Positions 3,592 to 62,899 of a stretch of 64,000 nt of DNA are shown piece after piece. The DNA comes from Escherichia phage EP02SG: the sequence record PQ301181; one strand, given 5' to 3'. The stretch's first letter is position 1, and every line of letters starts with the position of its first letter. The notes under the pieces were generated by a model. The model searched no databases and was not told the DNA's origin. It was given only the letters and a program-made list of their open reading frames with translations. The position numbers were made by a program, and so were the translations under genes.

Positions 3592-3634
3592 GCTAATTTC
3601 CTCAATTGATTAATGTTTTGTAATCCATGAGAGC

Positions 3635-3663
3635 ATTATACTCTGCTCTCAAGAGTTTGTACA
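3635..3663 (-). promoter_or_regulatory. sigma70-like early promoter upstream of ndd
   Basis: rc reads TTGTAC-N18-TATAAT with palindromic CTCTTGAGAG in the spacer; module recurs at about 47508-47545. Confidence 0.4.
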
Positions 3664-3666
3664 ATT

Positions 3667-3867
3667 TTATTCGGCTATATCAGAACGTTCAAAAAGCTCT
3701 TCAACAGTTAAACATTCAGTGTCATCCTCAATAAAGAATCGGGTCCAATATGTTGGGGCGATGCAGTTATGAGTTTGTCCGGCTATAGAAGCTACACGAA
3801 TAAGCTGCTGACCATTATTCAGAACAAATTTTTCACCAATTTCAACATCTTTAAAAAGCTTAGCCAT
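3667..3867 (-). CDS. hypothetical protein (66 aa)
   Basis: Track ORF preceded by GTTTAC-N18-TATAGT early promoter and GAGGAA SD. Confidence 0.4.
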   Translation of the reverse strand: MAKLFKDVEIGEKFVLNNGQQLIRVASIAGQTHNCIAPTYWTRFFIEDDTECLTVEELFERSDIAE

Positions 3868-3895
3868 TTTGTATTCCTCATGTTTTGATAGGACT

Positions 3896-3925
3896 ACTAT
3901 ACCATAATCCTACCTTGATGTAAAC
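3896..3925 (-). promoter_or_regulatory. T4-type early promoter
   Basis: rc: GTTTAC-N18-TATAGT followed by AGTCCTATCAAAACA leader. Confidence 0.5.
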
Positions 3926-4117: not shown

Positions 4118-4381
4118 TCATATCTCAACTTCCGCGAGTTCCATATATCCTTTGTTGATAACCTCTTTAAGGTCTTTAGAAAGAATAACACTAAAATGGT
4201 CGTTCATGTGTCCATTAACCAGACGAGTTATTTCGGCTTCAGATGACATATAAGGCACGTCTGAGTCCCAATGAGATAGACCCAAATGGGTATAAATCAT
4301 CCCTTCGTCATCTGCAGTGTTGTACATTGAAACAAATTCGCCTGTTACTTTATGTTTTGCGTAGAAAAATTTAAATTTCAT
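4118..4381 (-). CDS. hypothetical protein (87 aa)
   Basis: Track ORF with its own early promoter (4408-4437) and SD. Confidence 0.45.
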   Translation of the reverse strand: MKFKFFYAKHKVTGEFVSMYNTADDEGMIYTHLGLSHWDSDVPYMSSEAEITRLVNGHMNDHFSVILSKDLKEVINKGYMELAEVEI

Positions 4382-4407
4382 GATGTTATCCTCTTTTAGA
4401 TAGGACT

Positions 4408-4437
4408 ACTATATCATAGTCCTACTTAGTTGTAAAC
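4408..4437 (-). promoter_or_regulatory. T4-type early promoter with TAGGACTA/TAGTCCTA inverted repeat around -10
   Basis: rc: GTTTAC-N18-TATAGT; palindrome TAGGACTACTATATCATAGTCCTA at 4401-4424. Confidence 0.5.
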
Positions 4438-4449
4438 ACTTTTATGAAA

Positions 4450-5007
4450 TTAAAGTTGAAGATACCACCCGTTGTAGTTGCTCTTGCGGACGATTTTCTT
4501 TAGGTCTTCATGGTCTCCCACGAACTTTATAGAATAAGAGAAGACGTCAGGTGAGGTTTCTTTGACATCTAATATAATAATGCAATCTGCGACTCGATGG
4601 TTCAAGAAGGGCCCTATATTGATTCCATTACCACCCGGATAATCACCACTGTATCCTGTGGTAACAGAAATCCATTTAGAATCTATCTGGTGTGTCTTGA
4701 CTTCTACACGAATTCCACAATACTTGGGATGGGCTAACACGTCCCATGCATACGTGTACGGGTCTTCTACGTCTTCAATACCTTTATTAACATACCCGTC
4801 TAGCCAATTTGCTACTACATACTCTGCAAAGACCGCAACCTTACAACGTCGAACTACATCTTCTTTGTTTTGGCCAGGATTTTGGCTCAGGGAATACCGA
4901 GCAGTGTCAGCAATCTTCACCTTCATTTCACTAGTCAAAAACTCATTCGACAGGATAAATGTCGGAAGATTCTTCAGTCTCAACAGTCCCAAGTTCGTCT
5001 TTACCAT
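4450..5007 (-). CDS. hypothetical protein (about 185 aa) at the T4 denB position
   Basis: Track ORF 4450..5058 trimmed to MVKTNL (AGAGG SD); the 185-aa length and location just downstream of rIIB parallel T4 denB, but I cannot confirm similarity. Confidence 0.4.
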   Translation of the reverse strand: MVKTNLGLLRLKNLPTFILSNEFLTSEMKVKIADTARYSLSQNPGQNKEDVVRRCKVAVFAEYVVANWLDGYVNKGIEDVEDPYTYAWDVLAHPKYCGIRVEVKTHQIDSKWISVTTGYSGDYPGGNGINIGPFLNHRVADCIIILDVKETSPDVFSYSIKFVGDHEDLKKIVRKSNYNGWYLQL

Positions 5008-5230
5008 AGATACCTCTGATGTGTAGTTCGCCAAAATAAATGCGGTCACCTTCTTCAAGATATTCTGCGTCTACCGGTGGGATTTCAATAACAACTTCGT
5101 CGCATTCTAACCAGCCGTAGTGTGCATCACCAGGATGTTTTACCAATTTAGCGCAATAAACTGATTTACACTTATGATGACCACGAAGATTAGCAATTTT
5201 GGATTCTGATACGTCAAATGGATGAATCAT
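4943..5230 (-). CDS. hypothetical protein (95 aa)
   Basis: Track ORF 4943..5284 trimmed to MIHPFDV (AGGGG SD) just after the rIIB terminator. Confidence 0.4.
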   Translation of the reverse strand: MIHPFDVSESKIANLRGHHKCKSVYCAKLVKHPGDAHYGWLECDEVVIEIPPVDAEYLEEGDRIYFGELHIRGIYGKDELGTVETEESSDIYPVE

Positions 5231-5243
5231 AATTACCCCTAAA

Positions 5244-5268
5244 GAAAAAAAAGGGGACCAAAGTCCCC
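5244..5268 (-). terminator. rho-independent terminator after rIIB
   Basis: rc GGGGACUUUGGUCCCC followed by U9. Confidence 0.6.
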
Positions 5269-5273
5269 AATTA

Positions 5274-6221
5274 TTATTCTGCAAATAATTCAGTAACGTC
5301 TGAAATTACTTCATAACGACAAGTACGCATCTTAGCATCACCATAGTCAACTGGGATGGACACAACATCACGTGGATGAACTTTAACCTTAACAACTTTA
5401 TCTGAGCTAGAACCAAAGTAACGAATATATGATTTAGCACAAACATGTAGACCACGGGAACAAGTTTGAGTATCATCATCGTTAACACGAGTACGAGGCA
5501 TTGAAACAACTTTACCAGGCGAGTTATCAAATGTGCCGCTATAGCAATCTAAATAGTCCTTACGAACTACTTTCCATGCGTAGAAATGCCCATCTTCAGT
5601 GATTTCAATATCGTTTGCAACCAAGAAGTCGAATAAACGTTGTACAGCTTTTTCACTTGGGTTTTCTAACAGGTTTTCAAGGAATGGCAGATAGAATTTA
5701 AAGTCTTCGCCTTTTTCCATGGAATCAATAATACGATTAACCAGTCCTGAACGAATTTCTATACCTTGATAAAATAAACTACCACCTTCAATAGTAACAT
5801 TACCGTCAACAAACTTACTAATAGCTTTCTTGATGTTAATAAGTTCGACAGCTTTACTAAGGTTTCCTGCGACCAAATTAGCTTTAATTTCTTCAAAATT
5901 TGCATGACTTGATGGGGTCGCATTGTATGCTACGCGTCCTTCAATAATTGAAATAAATTTAGATGACGCGTTCCATACGATTTCTGGACGATGACCGCCG
6001 ATAATAGGTTCATCATTTTCTGGAACTTCTTCGATTACATAAGAGGCATCGTTTGCTTCAGGGACAACGCCTTCTGCTTTAAAATTCTTAACAATCTTAC
6101 GAAGAGTATCTGTTGAAATGTCGAAGTAATCGGCAATTTCTTTACGAGTCCATTTGCCTGATTCAACCAGGCCATAAGCTTCTAACTGTTCTTCTTGGGA
6201 CAAGCATTTAATATTGTACAT
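5274..6221 (-). CDS. rIIB: rIIB protein
   Basis: 315-aa track ORF; MYNIKCL... N-term and C-terminal block FYAWKVVR...DDDTQTCSRGLHVC...KVKVHPRDVVSIP match remembered T4 rIIB. Confidence 0.9.
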   Translation of the reverse strand: MYNIKCLSQEEQLEAYGLVESGKWTRKEIADYFDISTDTLRKIVKNFKAEGVVPEANDASYVIEEVPENDEPIIGGHRPEIVWNASSKFISIIEGRVAYNATPSSHANFEEIKANLVAGNLSKAVELINIKKAISKFVDGNVTIEGGSLFYQGIEIRSGLVNRIIDSMEKGEDFKFYLPFLENLLENPSEKAVQRLFDFLVANDIEITEDGHFYAWKVVRKDYLDCYSGTFDNSPGKVVSMPRTRVNDDDTQTCSRGLHVCAKSYIRYFGSSSDKVVKVKVHPRDVVSIPVDYGDAKMRTCRYEVISDVTELFAE

Positions 6222-13662: not shown

Positions 13663-14082
13663 TTATGCGAAAGCAGCTTGGATATATTTTTTAATTTGGA
13701 ATTCAGGAACTACCATGAACTGACCAGCGAAAACGATGTTATAAAGCTTAACACCGTCTTCAACCCATTGGTCACTAATGAAGCCGGCGATTTGCTTAGT
13801 TTTCCACGGCGTTCCATCAGTTGCCGAAGCAATAGTGAATTCATGGTCTTTTTCAACAGAAACTGATCTGCATAGTCCCCATTTGAACGCTTTTTCTTCT
13901 GGTTCAATGAATTGGCTTGAGACGTAGCCAATATTACCATTAGCATCACGAACTTTAACTTGGTTACGACCAAAAACCGGATCACTCACAGAAAGAACTT
14001 CAACCAACTTCCCGGCAACTTTAGAGCGAGAAGCAACAGATACATATACGTAATCACCTGTAGAGAGATTTACAATATTCAT
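13663..14082 (-). CDS. hypothetical protein, paralog family member A
   Basis: 139-aa track ORF; shares C-terminal block GFISDQWVEDGVKLYNIVFAGQF.VVPE with the next two ORFs. Confidence 0.5.
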   Translation of the reverse strand: MNIVNLSTGDYVYVSVASRSKVAGKLVEVLSVSDPVFGRNQVKVRDANGNIGYVSSQFIEPEEKAFKWGLCRSVSVEKDHEFTIASATDGTPWKTKQIAGFISDQWVEDGVKLYNIVFAGQFMVVPEFQIKKYIQAAFA

Positions 14083-14091
14083 AATAATTCC

Positions 14092-14547
14092 TTAAGCTTT
14101 ACGAGGAGACACATAGCGAGTGATTTCAGATTCTTTAACAACTCGGAAGTCACCTAAGAATACGATATTGTATAACTTTTCACCATCTTCAACCCATTGG
14201 TCACTGATGAAGCCGCACATAATATCAGTTTTGTTTGGATAACCATATTCGTCGATGAAATCAAATTCTTTATCAGTCCGGAATTCAACGCCTTTGCAAA
14301 GGGCCCATTTGAACTGTACATTAGGTTCAGTAGAAGCAAAATGAGCGCTCACATGAGTTTCCAAGAATTTAGGACTTACGTAAGCGTACTGAGTTTCAGT
14401 TTTTCCAGAACTAGGAATGATTCGAACTTTAACTTCTTTAACACGTCCAGTACCATTAGTACGAAGTCCTACCACTTCAACTAGACGACCTGCAGCTTTA
14501 GAACGAGATGCAGACGATACACGCTTAATTTCACCAATAGTAATCAT
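14092..14547 (-). CDS. hypothetical protein, paralog family member B
   Basis: 151-aa track ORF; N-term RSKAAGRLVEVV and C-term GFISDQWVEDGEKLYNIVFLGDFRVV shared with 13663-14082. Confidence 0.5.
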   Translation of the reverse strand: MITIGEIKRVSSASRSKAAGRLVEVVGLRTNGTGRVKEVKVRIIPSSGKTETQYAYVSPKFLETHVSAHFASTEPNVQFKWALCKGVEFRTDKEFDFIDEYGYPNKTDIMCGFISDQWVEDGEKLYNIVFLGDFRVVKESEITRYVSPRKA

Positions 14548-14611
14548 AATTTCTCTCTCTCTTTGTTTAAATTGAATTCATTATACTCCATCCATCCTTG
14601 GATGTACAACA

Positions 14612-15148
14612 TTAATTAAGGATATTAACCACAGCACTACGTGGAACTACACTAAAATCACCTGCATGAACAACGTTCAGAAGTTCAACACCGTCTTCAA
14701 TCCACTGATCAGTTACCCATCCATTTACTGGACCTGCGAACGGACGTCGAATTGAAACATATTTACACAACAAATCAGTAGGCTCAATAGGCTTAATCAG
14801 AGTACCGTACATACAAGCGATATCCATATCAATACAGATATCTTTAACGGGTTCTACTTCTTTAATCAACAGTTCAAAGTCGGTGCTTGGAAGGGCGGTA
14901 GTAGAAATTGTACCATATGAATTTTTAATTTCTAAGAATAACCAAGGGCCTTCAACTTGTTTGATGAAGTTAACAATAGTGAAACTATTACCTTGAGTGG
15001 CACCTAAAATTTCACAAAACTTTTCATAAGCTCGCACTGAAGCACCATACCAGTTGATTTGTTTTTCATCTTTCAGGATGTAAGTAGCCGTTGTATTGAT
15101 ATTCATAATGTTTTCCTGTTTGGTTAAGATAGAAAGATTATACTCCAA
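14612..15148 (-). CDS. hypothetical protein, paralog family member C
   Basis: 178-aa track ORF; C-term GWVTDQWIEDGVELLNVVHAGDFSVVP matches the family block; own early promoter. Confidence 0.5.
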   Translation of the reverse strand: MEYNLSILTKQENIMNINTTATYILKDEKQINWYGASVRAYEKFCEILGATQGNSFTIVNFIKQVEGPWLFLEIKNSYGTISTTALPSTDFELLIKEVEPVKDICIDMDIACMYGTLIKPIEPTDLLCKYVSIRRPFAGPVNGWVTDQWIEDGVELLNVVHAGDFSVVPRSAVVNILN

Positions 15149-15166
15149 CCATCCTTGGTTGTAAAC
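15137..15166 (-). promoter_or_regulatory. T4-type early promoter with palindromic spacer
   Basis: rc: GTTTAC-AACCAAGGATGGTTGGAG-TATAAT; CAACCA/TGGTTG inverted repeat; variant copy at 14580-14610. Confidence 0.55.
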
Positions 15167-24336: not shown

Positions 24337-24622
24337 CTGTGATTTCGGTTACGATATCTTTGTTATCGAAATTAGGGTCACAATACAAAACATAATTGTA
24401 CTGCATGATACCACCGGACTTAAGTTGTTCAACAACTTTATTAACCATATTAGGACGGTCTCGTTTAGTGATGTTCATGATATCAGAGAAGATTTGTTGT
24501 TCAACATCTTCTTGATTTGCAGTCATTGACCACTCACAGAGGTCTTTATCATAACCTGCCGTAACTGGAGCTGGTGCACATGATACTGCGAGTAAGATTG
24601 CTGCCAATGATAACTTTTTCAT
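24329..24622 (-). CDS. sp: Spackle periplasmic protein (lysozyme inhibitor/superinfection exclusion)
   Basis: 97-aa track ORF; signal peptide then GYDKDLCEWSMTA...KSGGIMQYNYVLYCD matches remembered T4 Sp. Confidence 0.8.
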   Translation of the reverse strand: MKKLSLAAILLAVSCAPAPVTAGYDKDLCEWSMTANQEDVEQQIFSDIMNITKRDRPNMVNKVVEQLKSGGIMQYNYVLYCDPNFDNKDIVTEITGE

Positions 24623-24651
24623 TTTAACTCCTTAGTTGATTTGATAGGACT

Positions 24652-24681
24652 ACTATACTATAGTCCATCTATAATGTAAAC
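24652..24681 (-). promoter_or_regulatory. T4-type early promoter upstream of sp
   Basis: rc: GTTTAC-N18-TATAGT with TAGGACTA...TATAGTCC inverted repeat. Confidence 0.5.
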
Positions 24682-38397: not shown

Positions 38398-38454
38398 TTA
38401 ATTTCCTTTAGACGAGTTATTGTCTTTTGTTTGTTGATGAACTTATTATACTCC

Positions 38455-38474
38455 AAATGGGACCGAAGTCCCAT
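38455..38474 (-). other. C(UUCG)G hairpin between regA and gene 43
   Basis: rc AAUGGGACUUCGGUCCCAUU followed by UGGAGUAUAAU. Confidence 0.4.
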
Positions 38475-38478
38475 TGCT

Positions 38479-38847
38479 TTAATTACCAATTGTATATTTT
38501 GCTTTCAAAGTCCAGTCATCTTTCTGTTTAAAAGAGATAACACGGAAGTTATTAGTCAGGCTAAATAGATCTTCACGAGCAGAATCTTCAATAACAATCA
38601 ATCCCCAGTCTTCAAGCAACTGAGCAATCGAATCACGTCGCTGATAGTCTTCACCATCAATATCAACCTGACGTCCGTCCATACGCAGCATTTCTTTAAA
38701 GTGGACGATATAGTATTTACCTTGTTTTTGGAGGATATGACAAGACTGGTAAAGGACTTTATCCTTGTTATTAGCGATGCCCATACGGGTCAAAGTCTCT
38801 TTGACTTTCAGAAAATCTTCAGGGTTCTTCAATTTAATTTCAATCAT
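38479..38847 (-). CDS. regA: RegA translational repressor
   Basis: Track ORF 38479..38856 trimmed to MIEIKLK; KPEDFLKVKETLTRMGIANNKDKVLYQSCHILQK...NNFRVISFKQK match remembered T4 RegA. Confidence 0.85.
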   Translation of the reverse strand: MIEIKLKNPEDFLKVKETLTRMGIANNKDKVLYQSCHILQKQGKYYIVHFKEMLRMDGRQVDIDGEDYQRRDSIAQLLEDWGLIVIEDSAREDLFSLTNNFRVISFKQKDDWTLKAKYTIGN

Positions 38848-47480: not shown

Positions 47481-47546
47481 ATTATTTTCCTCGGTTATTT
47501 TATTATCCAATGAGAGAATTATACTCTGCTCTCAAGAGTTTATATA

Positions 47547-47786
47547 CTATTTTTTAAGCATGAAAAGTAAGTAATTTGTATCACGTGGAGTAATATCAAC
47601 ACCCATATCAAAGATGCCTTTATAGATTGGGTATTTATTTTCGGTTGTATCGAAGCTGAAACTATTTCCATCACAACTAACAGTAATAGCATCTGTTAAA
47701 ATGTCATACTCAATCCTAACAATTGAATCCCCAATTTTAACGTCGAGGTGTTTTTTGAATTTGATAAAATCTAATTCTTGGGCCAT
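47547..47786 (-). CDS. hypothetical protein (79 aa)
   Basis: Track ORF. Confidence 0.45.
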   Translation of the reverse strand: MAQELDFIKFKKHLDVKIGDSIVRIEYDILTDAITVSCDGNSFSFDTTENKYPIYKGIFDMGVDITPRDTNYLLFMLKK

Positions 47787-54072: not shown

Positions 54073-54332
54073 TTAAAATATTCTCGTAGTTGGTCAAAGC
54101 CACCGATCGAAGTTCCATCAGGAGCAAACACTTGAGGCATAGTCAATCCGACTTGTGATTCACGTCCAAGCTTAACCAGAAGCTCAGCAATTTTCTCATC
54201 ATCGAACACACCTTTTTCTGGCATAACATTAATGAATTCGAATGGCTGTTTCTTAACAGTCAGCAATCGTTTCGCATTATCGCAATAAATGCATTTATGA
54301 ATAGTAGAGTCATACCCGTACACTTTAAACAT
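54069..54332 (-). CDS. nrdC: thioredoxin NrdC
   Basis: Track ORF 54069..54350 trimmed to MFKVYGYD; CIYCDNAKRLL...PQVFAPDG..IGGFDQLREYFK near-identical to remembered T4 NrdC. Confidence 0.85.
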   Translation of the reverse strand: MFKVYGYDSTIHKCIYCDNAKRLLTVKKQPFEFINVMPEKGVFDDEKIAELLVKLGRESQVGLTMPQVFAPDGTSIGGFDQLREYFK

Positions 54333-54738
54333 TATTTTTCCTTTCATCAATTAAATATGCAACGCCAAATACAGTACATGTAATAAAACCTGTGATACAG
54401 ATAGAAACCAACAACACTGTACCAAAGAACCAAATCAAGTTATCTTTAGTAGTTTGTTTAATATCCATCTCACGAATTTCTATAGCTATCGTATCACCTT
54501 TATTCAGAAGCGTATAAAACGACGGTGATACATGCCTGTCAAAAACACGGCCTTGTTCATCTTTATAAACTGCAATAAATTCCAATTTAGAATATTTTCC
54601 TGTAGATTGGCCTGAGATTAATTCCACTACCTCCACAGGAATTACTTTAGTTTCCATGTAAGTATTCTGGCTGTTCCAAATGAATGGAATGATGGCAAAA
54701 ACTAAAGCTGCAATAAAGCAACGAAGGCTATATCTCAT
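54325..54738 (-). CDS. membrane protein (137 aa)
   Basis: Track ORF; N-terminal and C-terminal TM helices. Confidence 0.45.
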   Translation of the reverse strand: MRYSLRCFIAALVFAIIPFIWNSQNTYMETKVIPVEVVELISGQSTGKYSKLEFIAVYKDEQGRVFDRHVSPSFYTLLNKGDTIAIEIREMDIKQTTKDNLIWFFGTVLLVSICITGFITCTVFGVAYLIDERKNNV

Positions 54739-55043
54739 TATAATGTTCTCTCAAATTTGTGGAAGCATTTACGGCATTTCAATTTCAAGTTATCAGTGGT
54801 CCAGTTAACCAGTTGGACTTGGATAGTTCCACATTCCGGACATGGATGTTTTGCTGCCGATTTGGCAGCATTTTCACGTCGTTCAACCATTTTCATTATT
54901 TCGTTCCATGCCGGAGGAACGAACTCTTCTTCACCGTGGATTTTATCTCGCTGAACAAATTCAATCTTTGAACTATCGTCAATAAACTTAACCAAGCCAT
55001 GATTAGTGCTCATATCAATATCCTCTAAAAGACGTAGTTTCAT
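54738..55043 (-). CDS. zinc-ribbon protein (101 aa)
   Basis: Track ORF; CPECG...CRKC motif. Confidence 0.45.
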   Translation of the reverse strand: MKLRLLEDIDMSTNHGLVKFIDDSSKIEFVQRDKIHGEEEFVPPAWNEIMKMVERRENAAKSAAKHPCPECGTIQVQLVNWTTDNLKLKCRKCFHKFERTL

Positions 55044-55993
55044 TATAACACCTCAATGGCATTTCGTAAGCCATCCGCTTTCGCATTCAGAGCTTTTAAT
55101 GATTTAGTTTGTTCAGCAATCTGGGCTTCGACTTCTTTCAGACGAGATTTGAGATATTCGCGTTCTTCTCTTAAATTATCAACTTTTTCTGCTTTAGTCT
55201 CTTTAATAGGCTTAGGCTTATACTCATTAGGGTTCTTCAACTTAATTTGAATGCGAGAACTGTATAACATTGAACCGTTATCTTCGGTTTCGCTGAACAT
55301 TTCAACAACATCCATAGTCTGTAATATCATACGAAGTTTATAAGACAGCGAACTAACGGTTTTGTTGCGCTTATTAATTTCTTCGGCTTTCATGGTACCG
55401 AGATTACGTGAGTAGTAATAAGGAACCTGGATATCAATTGACAATGATGCGTTACCATTACCAGTTGGTTTGAATACTGCAGTAACCCAATCTTTAACAT
55501 GAACTTTATTTGTACGACCGTCGCCGCCTGTGAATAATTTACGTGAATGTTTAAAAAGCATATTCACTTGGTTATTGAATTCACAAGCAAATTTATCAGC
55601 AAATTTAGTTTCAGGAATGGTAGATAACCAATCAGCCAAATGAGTCTTTTTAACATCGTTAATAATAGTAAATTCAACTAAATCAGTTTTAGATGTCACA
55701 GATTTAATAAAGCTCGGCTTCATAAAGTTTTTAATGTTATCGCGAGCTACAGTAGAAGATAATAAACGAGAACGTTTGAACCATTGAAGCAGTGTCCCTA
55801 ATGAATGAGAATACGCATTCTGAGTATCTTTACAGATATGATTTTCTTGGCCTGTGTATATACCAAAATCGCGAAGAATACCACTTACTACAACTCGGTG
55901 TGGAACATCAAATCCTAATGAACCAGAAGCACGTTGGGCATGAACGTTAGCGATAAGACCTGCAAAATAATCAACATAATGTGAACGTGTCAT
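55043..55993 (-). CDS. hypothetical protein with C-terminal coiled coil (316 aa)
   Basis: Track ORF; consensus early promoter 56022-56051 directly upstream. Confidence 0.5.
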   Translation of the reverse strand: MTRSHYVDYFAGLIANVHAQRASGSLGFDVPHRVVVSGILRDFGIYTGQENHICKDTQNAYSHSLGTLLQWFKRSRLLSSTVARDNIKNFMKPSFIKSVTSKTDLVEFTIINDVKKTHLADWLSTIPETKFADKFACEFNNQVNMLFKHSRKLFTGGDGRTNKVHVKDWVTAVFKPTGNGNASLSIDIQVPYYYSRNLGTMKAEEINKRNKTVSSLSYKLRMILQTMDVVEMFSETEDNGSMLYSSRIQIKLKNPNEYKPKPIKETKAEKVDNLREEREYLKSRLKEVEAQIAEQTKSLKALNAKADGLRNAIEVL

Positions 55994-56021
55994 AATATTT
56001 TCCTCTAGTTAAGATAGAAAG

Positions 56022-56051
56022 ATTATACTCCAACCATCCTTGGTTGTAAAC
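56022..56051 (-). promoter_or_regulatory. T4-type early promoter with palindromic spacer
   Basis: plus ATTATACTCCAACCATCCTTGGTTGTAAAC; rc gives GTTTAC-N18-TATAAT; identical module at 15137-15166, variant at 57042-57071. Confidence 0.55.
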
Positions 56052-56055
56052 TGAT

Positions 56056-57015
56056 TTATGATTTTAATGCATTCATTGCGTTAAAAAGTTTAGAGTACTG
56101 CAACTGGAGATTCGTTACAACACTTTGAGCATCACGAAGCTTAGCTTGTGCTTTGTCAAGTTCAACAGACAGTTGGTCCATAGTGGCCTTGATTTGATTG
56201 TAATGGTAATCTTCGGCCGGAAGAAGGTCATTAGAAACATTTAGTTTTACTGCAGACAGTTTGCACACATTTGGCAAACCTTTAAACATTGATTTACCCG
56301 AAGTAGAATAAGCACTTAGGACTTCGGCCTGTTCAATTGGGGTCCCAGTAAGCGATGCTTCAAACAATGCATTTTCCTTTTTAAGATTTTTATAATATTC
56401 AGAGTCTTTGTGCCACCATGGCGCAGGAACCTTTTTACCAATAGATACACGAGCCTGGATAGCGATATGGCCCTTATTCTTGATAACGTCGATAATATTA
56501 AGCTCACGAGAATAAATTGCTTTAATCTGGTGAATATTATCACCTAACACTTCCAACGCTTGGTGGAATACACGAGCAACGTTATCATTCTTAGGTTTAT
56601 ACGTAAGAGTGAACTCGTTCTCACTGATAACCATGATTTCCAACTTATCGTAAGTATATTTCAAATGTTTCATGTTAATTGCTTGAGGACGAATACGAGA
56701 AGCAATGGCCATCAGATTGTTAAGGTTATTCCGGAACTGCTTAGCGAAATATTGTCCTTCACCGCCAATACAAAAATTAAGAAGTTTCTGTTTGGCTAAT
56801 AAACGGCTGAACTCACCATTTTTAATGAACTCTTTAACGGGTGTGTTAGTAACGCATTCAAATTGAGTAAACTTACGAGAAGTAATCCCATAATATGAAC
56901 AGATTTCCTCAATCTCTTCAGGAGTCTTTACAGGCATACGGATAGGATTAGGACCTGGGGTATATGCGTTCGAGGTAAATTCTTTGATAAGTTCTCTACG
57001 TGTAATAGAAGCCAT
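56056..57015 (-). CDS. hypothetical protein with C-terminal coiled coil (319 aa)
   Basis: Track ORF; same promoter module upstream (57042-57071). Confidence 0.5.
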   Translation of the reverse strand: MASITRRELIKEFTSNAYTPGPNPIRMPVKTPEEIEEICSYYGITSRKFTQFECVTNTPVKEFIKNGEFSRLLAKQKLLNFCIGGEGQYFAKQFRNNLNNLMAIASRIRPQAINMKHLKYTYDKLEIMVISENEFTLTYKPKNDNVARVFHQALEVLGDNIHQIKAIYSRELNIIDVIKNKGHIAIQARVSIGKKVPAPWWHKDSEYYKNLKKENALFEASLTGTPIEQAEVLSAYSTSGKSMFKGLPNVCKLSAVKLNVSNDLLPAEDYHYNQIKATMDQLSVELDKAQAKLRDAQSVVTNLQLQYSKLFNAMNALKS

Positions 57016-57070
57016 TTTATATTCCTCATGTTGAAAAATTTATTATACTCCAACCATCCTTGGTTGTACA

Positions 57071-58066
57071 TCATTCCTTAAGAAGTTTTACTACTTGAAT
57101 AAGATTAGCTCGTTCTGTTTTATTTTTACCGTTTAAGCCTGCTAATCGTGAGATTTCATCATCAGTCTGTTGAATAGTTACATTAAGTTCGTTAATCAAA
57201 GCTTCAAAGTATTTGATTTGCTCAGCATGTTTTGATTCAAATTTTTGAACCGGAATAACGTCTTGGTTTAGTTCATCAATAAGGTCTTTAAGAGCATCTT
57301 CTTGGTTGATATCATATTCAACTTCTTTTATTTCTTCAACGAGCTCGTCTTTATATCTAACGTCTTTTAGTCCTGGTGCTGGTCCTGAAATCTCTTCTTT
57401 AAGAGTACAAACATATCCAATACGGTATCCAATACCGTCTCGCTTGATAACAACTTCGTCAATAAATCCACAATGTTTAAGTCCAGAGCCGATTACGTCA
57501 AAATATCCTTGACGTCGTCCTTCAAACGTTACACGAACTACTAAGACAGTTTTACCTGCAACCTTTTGAAGCTCACATTTATAAAAGTCAGTTGAACCTG
57601 AATAACGTGGATGAGTTTTAAAGTTCATCTGACGATCTAGGCCCATTTGTAAGCGTGCTGATACGGCCATAAAACGTGTTTGATTCTCGTTAAGATGAGC
57701 AACAATCCATTTCAAAGGCATTTTACACTGTTCACGGCCGAACAAATCAGTACGTCCTAGATTACGCAGGATGTTGTTAGAGTTAATCATCGACAGAACG
57801 TTAAGTTTATTCAGCGCGCTGAAGATTCCATCGGCCATTGATTTTCCGTAACCTTTACACGCTTTAATAAGCGCTCGCGGTAGATTAGTATAGATTTCAG
57901 ACGGCATATGAAAATCAAATTTACTAGTCAGTAATTGATGAACTTGGATAGCAATTTGCTCATAATTAAGTGCTCTTCGATCATTATGGTCTTTAAACCA
58001 TACTTTAATCTGTGAAGCACATAAACCGTTAATTTCATGTTTTACCGCATCAGATGTAATGCTCAT
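57071..58066 (-). CDS. hypothetical protein with C-terminal coiled coil (331 aa)
   Basis: Track ORF. Confidence 0.5.
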   Translation of the reverse strand: MSITSDAVKHEINGLCASQIKVWFKDHNDRRALNYEQIAIQVHQLLTSKFDFHMPSEIYTNLPRALIKACKGYGKSMADGIFSALNKLNVLSMINSNNILRNLGRTDLFGREQCKMPLKWIVAHLNENQTRFMAVSARLQMGLDRQMNFKTHPRYSGSTDFYKCELQKVAGKTVLVVRVTFEGRRQGYFDVIGSGLKHCGFIDEVVIKRDGIGYRIGYVCTLKEEISGPAPGLKDVRYKDELVEEIKEVEYDINQEDALKDLIDELNQDVIPVQKFESKHAEQIKYFEALINELNVTIQQTDDEISRLAGLNGKNKTERANLIQVVKLLKE

Positions 58067-58128
58067 AACTATTTCCTCAGATTGAATTGGAACTCAAAAC
58101 CATTATAACCCGTCCTTGGGTAAAGCGT

Positions 58129-58656
58129 TTATGCGTGAACCGTCTTTAAACGTTCTTCAAATTTCCGAAGAGTACTAATACGTTCTGCTTTCTGTTTTGT
58201 ATAGTTTGCAATACGTTCTGAAGTGAGAGCGTATCGTTCGTTTACTGTTTCTTTCATGAAGTCAGGGATTTCACGAGAAGCTTTAATTTCATCAAACTTA
58301 TCGAGTACTGCCTGGTCTTCAGCGATTAAATTTTCGTACATCTCGATATCTTTCTTGATAAACTCGATATCTTCCTGGGTTACTTTGGATAAACGAGATG
58401 CTTTATCCTTTTTGTACTGCTCGTTAGTTTCACGAGACCAGAATAATGTACGTTTTTTGTTAGTGTTTTTGTAGACTTCCACAATTCCAACTGAATCGAT
58501 GATAGCAATCCAATTCCAGCGAGATTTGAAAATCTGACCTCCGTCCACGGTAATCTCGTTACCATAAGCAACGTCATTAAAGAACTTGCTTTGTGCTTCA
58601 GATTTAAATTTACCGTCGTTATAATTTACCAGGTTGAAAATATCTTTAGCGTTCAT
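58129..58656 (-). CDS. hypothetical protein (175 aa)
   Basis: Track ORF; early promoter 58673-58701 and SD upstream. Confidence 0.5.
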   Translation of the reverse strand: MNAKDIFNLVNYNDGKFKSEAQSKFFNDVAYGNEITVDGGQIFKSRWNWIAIIDSVGIVEVYKNTNKKRTLFWSRETNEQYKKDKASRLSKVTQEDIEFIKKDIEMYENLIAEDQAVLDKFDEIKASREIPDFMKETVNERYALTSERIANYTKQKAERISTLRKFEERLKTVHA

Positions 58657-58672: not shown

Positions 58673-58701
58673 TTGATAGGTCTATAATAACATAACCATA
58701 G
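58673..58701 (-). promoter_or_regulatory. T4-type early promoter with AGGTCTAT/ATAGACCT inverted repeat
   Basis: rc: GTTTAC-N17-TATTAT. Confidence 0.5.
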
Positions 58702-58714
58702 ACCTTGTAAACAA

Positions 58715-59002
58715 CTAAAAGAAACTTTTTTCGGTATTTTTTCCACTGAACCAAACCGATTTCGGAATTTTCTGTAATTTTTCAGATTTAAGTTTCTCTT
58801 CCTGTTCTTTCTTATATGCATCCTTGTCGTACTGGAACAACTCTAAGGCATTCTTTTGTAGACGGTCTAAGGTAATTAAGGCTTTAGTTTTTCCTTTCAA
58901 GGAAGAGTCCTGGCGAACCTCCTCGCTATATTGCATCGTAGAACTAACCATACGATGAGCATAGAGTTCTACTGCGGCTTTAATTTTTTGCATAAAATCC
59001 AT
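58715..59002 (-). CDS. hypothetical protein (95 aa)
   Basis: Track ORF. Confidence 0.45.
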   Translation of the reverse strand: MDFMQKIKAAVELYAHRMVSSTMQYSEEVRQDSSLKGKTKALITLDRLQKNALELFQYDKDAYKKEQEEKLKSEKLQKIPKSVWFSGKNTEKSFF

Positions 59003-62735: not shown

Positions 62736-62869
62736 TTACCATACTCGTTTCAATAAGATTCACTATGCCGTTTACCATGTTATAAGTAAACATCGGATAA
62801 TTGTATTGTACTACAACATAAGCGATAAGCAAAAGTTTCATTTTGTTCTCCGTTTGTTTTGATAGGACT

Positions 62870-62899
62870 ACTATAACATAGTCCTACCAAGACGTAAAC
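62870..62899 (-). promoter_or_regulatory. T4-type early promoter with TAGGACTA/TAGTCCTA inverted repeat
   Basis: rc: GTTTAC-N18-TATAGT. Confidence 0.5.

Follow-up and report, generated by a model that had tools for sequence, protein, structure and literature searches.

Repeated early promoters with a spacer hairpin in the RB69-like phage EP02SG are probably PeSL-type cassettes

What is a palindrome doing between the two boxes of an early promoter, and why does the same promoter recur almost letter for letter elsewhere in the genome? Positions 56022-56051 of Escherichia phage EP02SG raise this question. They lie in a 64,000-nucleotide stretch of sequence record PQ301181 (hereafter, the window), and an earlier note on this DNA had read in them a class of early promoters, repeated as a 30-mer, whose internal palindrome suggested a shared regulator or a recombination-prone repeat. 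The window is 96-98% identical to many coliphages by megablast and represents an RB69-like Mosigvirus whose genes, judged from GC skew and open reading frames, are encoded on the minus strand. Weighing promoter sequence, palindrome variation and gene order across related phages, we judge the modules likely to be cassettes of the PeSL (promoter-early stem-loop) type in a T4-type, RB69-like phage, each uniting a promoter, a hairpin and a recombination linker.

The repeat itself is real. Searching the whole window for the 30-mer ATTATACTCCAACCATCCTTGGTTGTAAAC returned exact copies at 15137-15166 (module A) and 56022-56051 (module B), and a copy with two mismatches, both at the -35 end, at 57042-57071 (module C), against zero matches in 100 shuffles of the window. 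A copy with four mismatches lies at 14580-14609 (module D); chance alone would be expected to give none of these copies. Two of the four mismatches in module D form a complementary pair that converts CAACCA/TGGTTG to CATCCA/TGGATG. All four modules lie on the minus strand, where they read (G)TTTACA or TGTACA, 17 nt and TATAAT, scoring 11/12 (TTTACA modules) or 10/12 (TGTACA modules) against the sigma-70 consensus. The palindrome CAACCA-AGGA-TGGTTG, 16 nt long, takes in the final two bases of the -35 hexamer and stops 3 nt short of the -10, with GAG filling the interval. In module B, these parts fall at 56050-56045 (-35, TTTACA), 56046-56031 (palindrome), 56031-56028 (GGAG) and 56027-22 (-10, TATAAT), and in module C at 57070-57065 (-35, TGTACA), 57066-57051 (palindrome CAACCA-AGGA-TGGTTG) and 57047-57042 (-10); module D combines TGTACA, the compensatory variant CATCCA-AGGA-TGGATG and TATAAT. 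Modules A and B share 46 identical nucleotides, beginning 3 nt ahead of the -35 hexamer and ending immediately short of the Shine-Dalgarno sequence; outside this stretch, the flanks of the two are unrelated. No place in the window besides modules A-D holds AAGGAT together with a stem of at least 6 bp.

In sequence, spacing and position, the modules fit the class of early promoters that had been proposed for them. T4-type early promoters have the boxes GTTTAC (-35) and TATAAT (-10) (Nolan et al. 2006). An upstream stop codon lies 4-13 nt before the module, and in modules A-D a Shine-Dalgarno sequence and ATG follow 25-35 nt downstream of the -10. The 25 nt upstream of the modules are A-rich, though the enrichment is modest (64-76% A+T vs 63% in the window). 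Of the 58 RB69 early promoters predicted with a hidden Markov model (HMM) by Nolan et al. (2006), Pe:8947, Pe:8387, Pe:51019 and Pe:52042 correspond to modules A, D, B and C, respectively, meaning that the promoter reading of these four sites has already been published as a prediction. Consensus and earlier prediction together support the assignment of modules A-D as T4-type sigma-70 early promoters. None of the four has a TGn extended -10 (positions -15 to -13), with GAG present instead, whereas TGA or TGT precedes the -10 in most of the window's other early-promoter candidates.

A fifth, degenerate member of the family, overlooked in the earlier note, was found at 58102-58126 (minus strand) between the nrdC.8 and nrdC.6 homologues. 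It reads GCTTTAC-CC-AAGGAC-GG-GT-TATAAT (also written GCTTTAC-CCAAGGACGGG-TTATAAT), with the stem ACCC/GGGT and a -35-like box too near the -10, and it has no entry in the RB69 promoter list of Nolan et al. (2006). This site is orthologous to the T4/JS98 site TTTATACCAAGGATGGTATAAT. The window holds five copies of the family, located in the dexA-motB and nrdC regions, and RB69 (NC_004928) carries all five sites.

The element at 38436-38474, previously taken for a relative with a hairpin in its spacer, turned out to be something else. It is the regA-gene 43 intergenic region, where the GGGACUUCGGUCCC hairpin takes the -35 position rather than the spacer, and the only sequence that it has in common with the modules is TTGGAGTATAAT. 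The hairpin there, AAUGGGAC-UUCG-GUCCCAUU (38445-38481, minus strand; centroid -11.7 kcal/mol), lies 3 nt past the regA stop codon and is followed by UUGGAGUAUAAU, which comprises a module-like GGAG and a -10-like box; no recognisable -35 is present at this element. Lying ahead of the DNA polymerase gene, it may combine a terminator or stabiliser hairpin with a promoter of the -10-only or middle type, or else be a RegB-like site.

Which genes stand behind these promoters? Downstream genes, assigned via homology to T4 and RB69, all lie on the minus strand. Module A adjoins the dexA stop codon and precedes the motB.1 homologue (14612-15106; 164 aa, with a MotB-family C-terminal region), which lies between modules A and D. 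Behind module D come the motB homologue (14092-14547; 151 aa, Pfam motB) and then a tandem MotB paralogue (13663-14082), and all three genes after modules A and D match Pfam motB. In the nrdC region, the nrdC.6 homologue (57071-58066; 331 aa) is found downstream of the fifth member, the nrdC.5 homologue (56056-57015; 319 aa, DUF7235) follows module C and forms a single-gene cassette between modules C and B, and the nrdC.3 homologue (55043-55993; 316 aa, 55% identity to T4 NrdC.3) follows module B. The earlier note had the modules drive tandem paralogues and a trio of coiled-coil genes. Three MotB-family genes do follow modules A and D; the nrdC trio are not demonstrable paralogues. Each of the trio falls into a PHROG of its own, none with an assigned function, and comparing the three proteins with one another by BLASTP gave no significant hit, though weak links via T4 NrdC.4 exist. 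On the annotation side, RB69 motB.1 (L132:3377-3873) is listed as a 132-aa gene plus a separate 29-aa ORF, compared with the one 164-aa ORF at 14612-15106 in the window, a split for which a frameshift or sequencing difference of the RB69 reference is the probable cause.

The palindrome is part of a wider family with the core CC-A-AGGA-Y-GG, found in T4, RB69-like and JS98-like phages. In T4, it takes the form TTATACCA-AGGA-TGGTATAA upstream of nrdC.7, CCACA-AGGA-TGTGG upstream of nrdC.4 and AGCCA-AGGA-TGGCT upstream of nrdC.3; JS98-like phages have CATCCA-AGGA-(T/C)GGATG upstream of nrdC.4. About 7 of the 58 predicted RB69 promoters carry this hairpin in the spacer, and these seven differ otherwise in their -35, -10 and downstream sequences. 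Two of them lie outside the window's equivalent: Pe:72567 upstream of ORF146c (CACCA-AGGA-TGGTG; NC_004928 ~72539, L136) and Pe:138093 upstream of alc (ACACC-AAGGAA-GGTGT; NC_004928 ~138065, L137), both with the -10 TACTAT. Arm variants across the family include AACCA, ATCCA, GCCA, CACA, TACCA and CACC, and even a single site may have more than one allele, as seen at site D, where the window and RB69 carry CATCCA/TGGATG and LH01 carries CAACCA/TGGTTG.

We aligned 14 distinct family sequences from T4, RB69-like and JS98-like phages on the loop; in this alignment, whose rows are related to one another (12 picked by promoter context and 2 by a stem-requiring scan), standard pairs make up 88% of cells, compared with 64% after shuffling of the columns (0/500) and 17-42% for slid partners. 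Double-sided changes are present at four of the six pairs, one of which is seen as AU, UA, CG and GC, and the loop AGGA is invariant along with the adjacent C and A. The hairpin core is kept in all three groups of phages and the arms co-vary; the comparison indicates that it is self-complementarity, not arm sequence, that is conserved. A scan of IMG/VR viral contigs with the pattern CAAGGATGN{2,10}TATAAT returned, among the matches listed, almost all chance hits, with stem lengths near the chance distribution and no usable family members. One T4-like contig from IMG/VR (L006) has nrdC.4 split in two ORFs (4910-5953), together with a nrdC.3-upstream hairpin that carries a stem-breaking G to A and a -10 of TACAAA; there, the cassette seems to be degenerating along with the gene.

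Compensatory arms around an invariant loop fit a selected hairpin and do not fit a conserved operator, and this bears directly on the idea of a shared regulator. Read as an operator, the palindrome would bind a dimeric regulator, from phage or host, through which this subset of promoters is controlled together, for example in early-promoter shut-off, a mechanism that is incompletely understood (Uzan and Miller review). A 16-bp palindrome within the -35/-10 spacer is indeed in a classic place for a repressor, the CCAAGGA core and the GG vary little or not at all over the three genera, and the module promoters lack the extended -10 (TGn) that typical T4 early promoters have. Yet a dimer that reads sequence would not tolerate arms that vary with compensation, and the invariant centre, AGGA, is itself asymmetric. 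The distance from the loop to the -10 ranges from 3 to 10 nt among family members, a shift of up to 7 nt that leaves no fixed geometry to RNA polymerase. The orthologous T4 promoter after dexA, moreover, is an ordinary one without the palindrome; the window sequence is common with T4 only up to the GTTTAC box, past which T4 has motB.2 and the window has motB.1. The element at 38436 is also a different one. A shared regulator finds no support here, and we hold an operator to be highly improbable. To our knowledge, the palindrome has no candidate regulator.

Some features of the family fit a structural account less neatly. A purely structural role leaves the invariant CCAAGGA core unexplained. 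Changes on one side of the stem only (a T to C beside the loop, which recurs, and one G to A) produce A.C or C.A rather than G.U on the sense strand, a mismatch pattern that, as it reads in these sequences, does not favour a sense-RNA hairpin. The T to C change at the loop-closing position occurs in several lineages and sites (window 58112, RB69 site D, L004 site C and dhaeg L010:4016) and turns A-U into A.C, with a G.T wobble on the opposite strand; it could represent a tolerated 6-nt loop, a mutational hotspot or a structure of the other strand. The compensatory changes could alternatively be mutational, through quasi-palindrome template switching, or arise by conversion between copies, rather than by selection on each pair.

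Extended to the modules as a whole, the mutational account would make them leftovers of duplication, with a functionless palindrome kept by quasi-palindrome mutation and gene conversion and with any recombination incidental. Modules C/B and A/D do flank neighbouring genes of duplication-prone families, the MotB paralogues being an example, and the predicted stability of the hairpin is no better than that of shuffled sequence. The two alleles of site D differ by exactly one symmetric pair, just as a single conversion or template switch would give, and the T4 dexA site works without a palindrome. But orthologous sites retain the hairpin core across three genera in which the flanking proteins are only 25-83% identical, the hairpin recurs in the seven RB69 promoters of otherwise different sequence, and its AGGA loop stays invariant where the arms vary. 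Inverted repeats are, in addition, enriched over the early-promoter candidates of the window generally: a perfect inverted repeat of at least 6 bp occurs in 8 of 18 candidates vs 1.75 expected (~4.5-fold; 0/500 shuffles), indicating that hairpin-bearing early promoters are a general trait of this phage genome. Modules that are merely passive repeats are thus very improbable in our judgement.

Other promoter-associated repeats were seen in the window. The main early-promoter class has a different inverted repeat, in which the spacer pairs with the conserved start region and the -10 is enclosed (AGGTCTAT...ATAGACCT and TAGGACTA...TAGTCCTA); its sites (families D1-D3) include 58675-58716, 4377-4437, 24621-24681, 3865-3925 and 62839-62899, among others. 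A 56-nt repeat at 3616-3671 and 47499-47554 (80% identity, 44 kb apart) holds TGAGAGCA-GAGTATAA-TGCTCTCA, an 8-bp hairpin with the -10 box as its loop, and looks like another dispersed promoter/stem-loop cassette. Closer to the start of the window, an 88-nt tandem repeat (959-1046 and 1280-1367; 93% identity, 321 bp apart) spans a promoter with GTTTAC and a TGCTTCA MotA-box-like spacer, the 5' UTR and the starts of two small genes, which suggests a promoter-gene cassette that was duplicated in tandem recently.

If the hairpin is what is conserved, what might it do as RNA? Its predicted form is a perfect 6-bp stem with a 4-nt loop, in which three of the six pairs are G-C, and it is weak (centroid -6.9 kcal/mol; z -0.2 to -0.8 vs shuffles). 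No U-tract follows the module hairpins, with GAGUAUAAUC after the stem instead, and a terminator scan of the window made no terminator-like call at any module. Lacking a U-tract and having a weak stem, the hairpin is not a canonical terminator, and termination of the RB49 type is unlikely here; an intrinsic terminator was rejected for the weak, A/T-containing stem, the missing U-tract and the absence of a scan call. A competing fold of AGGAUGG with a downstream CUAUCUU, which is the minimum free energy (MFE) structure for modules A and B, was likewise discarded, being impossible in C and D and hence incidental. A comparison of 55500-58500 with the covariance models of Rfam 15 gave no match at E up to 1.

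Directly 3' of the module hairpin on the coding strand lies GGAGUAUAAU, and this neighbourhood resembles a RegB cleavage site: GGAGUAUAAUC / GGAGUAUAAU(C/A/G) agrees with the RegB/S1 consensus GGAGRAYARAA in 8 of its 11 positions, and the U that it has at position 5 is tolerated (Durand 2006). The window contains GGAGTATAAT five times, each copy lying on the coding strand just after a hairpin, one of these being the CUUCGG hairpin of regA-gene 43. RNA processing could then be the primary function of the modules, with the hairpin and GGAG-UAUAAU acting as a site for RegB/S1 or another RNase in read-through transcripts, the upstream message keeping a 3' stem-loop and the promoter boxes doubling as the A/U-rich 3' part. 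Beyond the consensus match and the five sites behind hairpins, GGAGUAUAAAU is kept at the T4 nrdC.3 upstream site, RegB targets intergenic GGAG motifs of early transcripts, and regB is present in RB69; the loop, moreover, presents an unpaired GGA with a paired fourth base, like an S1-independent substrate (Uzan and Miller review). Several family members, however, have the hairpin without GGAG, both in T4 (upstream of nrdC.4 and nrdC.7) and in RB69 (Pe:72567 and Pe:138093), which makes the RegB match a lead and not a result. Positions 10-11 of the consensus are not A in the modules, 42 of the 68 intergenic GGAG/U motifs tested in T4 were resistant, structured ones usually so (Durand 2006), and the GGAG beside TATAAT may simply be inherited promoter sequence without an RNA function. 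We regard processing as the primary function as quite unlikely.

An RNA role can also be framed around the hairpin family itself. The CC-A-AGGA-Y-GG hairpin, often together with GGAG-UAUAAU, would then be a dedicated RNA signal bound by RegB/S1, by the 30S subunit through its Shine-Dalgarno-like AGGA loop, or by another protein, so that the message is cut or silenced at cassette boundaries. This strikes us as unlikely. On this reading, T-even PeSLs without a terminator would insulate neighbouring genes post-transcriptionally, and promoter, RNA-processing site and recombination linker would be combined in a single 28-bp unit.

The evidence on recombination is more direct. We found the module in 209 phage records, RB69-like Mosigviruses in almost every case, usually at three places per genome. 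Two Mosigviruses, AV115 and PTE-Eco05, have no nrdC.5, and their nrdC.6 is followed by one module and then by nrdC.3. Alignment of this junction revealed the upstream flank of module C, the core ACAACCAAGGATGGTTGGAGTATAAT (28-bp) and the downstream flank of module B, with the absent nrdC.5 cassette amounting to 1020 bp. Such a chimeric C/B junction means that the repeats do recombine, and the aligned sequences indicate that the nrdC.5 cassette was lost or gained precisely, by exchange between two direct repeats. The expectation of a recombination-prone repeat is thus well served by these two phages, which lack the gene between C and B and retain one chimeric module. A fourth module copy in LH01 had been considered as a candidate tandem duplication of nrdC.5, but the nrdC region of LH01 is window-like and the extra copy is site D with its CAACCA/TGGTTG allele, and the candidate was dropped.

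Gene order across the wider group points the same way. Writing the nrdC genes by suffix and the hairpin module as [HP], the order is.8-[HP]-.7-.6-.5-[HP]-.4-[HP]-.3 in T4,.8-[HP]-.6-[HP]-.5-[HP]-.3-.2-.7 in RB69-like phages and.8-[HP]-.6-orf-.5-[HP]-.4-.2 in JS98-like phages, the T4-like order resting on seven NrdC.3-related loci, too few for population statistics. From nrdC.8 to nrdC.2, the gene content of the three groups differs mostly at hairpin modules. The nrdC.7 homologue of the window (54325-54738, minus strand) occupies the RB69-like site between nrdC.2 and nrdC, where it replaces nrdC.1; T4 nrdC.7 is located just downstream of the hairpin promoter behind nrdC.8. RB69-like phages are without nrdC.4, and JS98-like phages are without nrdC.3 and nrdC.7.

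As PeSL-type cassettes, the modules would plausibly work as follows. Host sigma-70 RNA polymerase would use TTTACA/TGTACA-17 nt-TATAAT right after infection, as sequence and prior prediction suggest, and would transcribe small non-essential genes in two hyperplastic regions, dexA-motB and nrdC. By comparison across phages, the spacer palindrome would be maintained as a hairpin-forming sequence and not as a fixed protein-binding sequence. Because the promoter begins 4-13 nt past the upstream stop codon, the palindrome would be transcribed only in upstream read-through RNA, in which it is predicted to form a weak stem-loop of about -7 kcal/mol followed by GGAGUAUAAU. We infer that this stem-loop may attenuate mildly, stabilise 3' ends or serve as a processing signal by which one cassette is insulated from the next. 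The identical 28-46 bp copies, which flank single genes in direct orientation, would act as recombination linkers, and with linker copies at gene edges, genes could be deleted, inserted or swapped at the modules, each gene retaining a working promoter.

This reading carries the PeSL model of modular gene shuffling into Mosigvirus, a third T4-type lineage, and supplies an unusually clean natural example: one gene apparently lost or gained with its boundaries exactly at two copies of a 28-bp promoter core. The hairpin family also offers a cheap and concrete target for work on the function of T-even PeSL stem-loops, where the look of a terminator is missing. For annotation and phage engineering, the repeats would mark predictable points of deletion and insertion in the nrdC and motB regions.

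Compared with known systems, the modules share with T4-type early promoters (reviewed in Hinton 2010) the GTTTAC(A) and TATAAT boxes, the 17-nt spacer, the A-rich upstream DNA and a site 5' to early or novel ORFs. They differ from the "uber" T4 early promoters (UP/-35/TGn/-10) in having no TGn, modules C and D are without the ...CTATC start region kept in most other early promoters of the window, and a spacer palindrome lies outside the published T4-type early promoter consensus. The likeness to RegB/S1 sites consists of an intergenic GGAG on early read-through RNA followed by A/U-rich sequence; the module GGAG, however, is not a Shine-Dalgarno sequence, and its first G is the last, paired base of the stem; it is a candidate site. 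The C(UUCG)G intercistronic hairpins of T4, represented here at regA-gene 43 (38445-38475), are likewise intergenic, on the coding strand and just past a stop codon, but the regA-gene 43 hairpin is stable, with 8 bp and a UUCG tetraloop, sits at the -35 position and falls outside the CC-AAGGAY-GG family.

The closest match is to the PeSLs themselves. Arbiol et al. (2010) distinguish five positional subclasses, with stem-loops commonest between the -35 and -10 or overlapping the -10, and describe the PeSLs of RB49 and phi1 as clustered in hyperplastic regions, where they mediate insertion, deletion and replacement of ORFans, mini-circle formation included. In RB49, PeSL211/210 acts as a terminator or attenuator by reporter assay, and the G/C-rich stems terminate as well as rrnB T1. 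Comeau et al. (2014) later added PST/T4 and nt-1/KVP40; their PST/T4 promoter, TTTACW-N17-TAYWAT, is one that the modules fit, and in PST they noted PeSLs that are degraded but keep their stem-loops intact, located at about 50 kb and so in the nrdC region. Like these PeSLs, the modules have a sigma-70-like early promoter with a 17-nt spacer and a stem-loop between the -35 and -10, occur as repeated copies in hyperplastic regions beside small genes of no known function, and bound indels or replacements between related phages, here with a precise single-gene deletion. Their stem is short (6 bp), A/T-containing and weak (about -7 kcal/mol) where those described for RB49 are G-run/C-run stems, it is unlike the AGNA-loop-TCNT form described for PST, and the conserved length is about 28-50 bp vs about 100 bp for the PeSLs in these descriptions. 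The modules show every PeSL feature that can be read from sequence, and terminator activity is doubtful. The promoters were already predicted in 2006 and the cassette type already described in 2010 and 2014; two things that we did not see in Arbiol 2010 and Comeau 2014 are the Mosigvirus deletion example and a PeSL subfamily, spread over three genera, in which the loop and its closing CC/GG are invariant and the arms co-vary.
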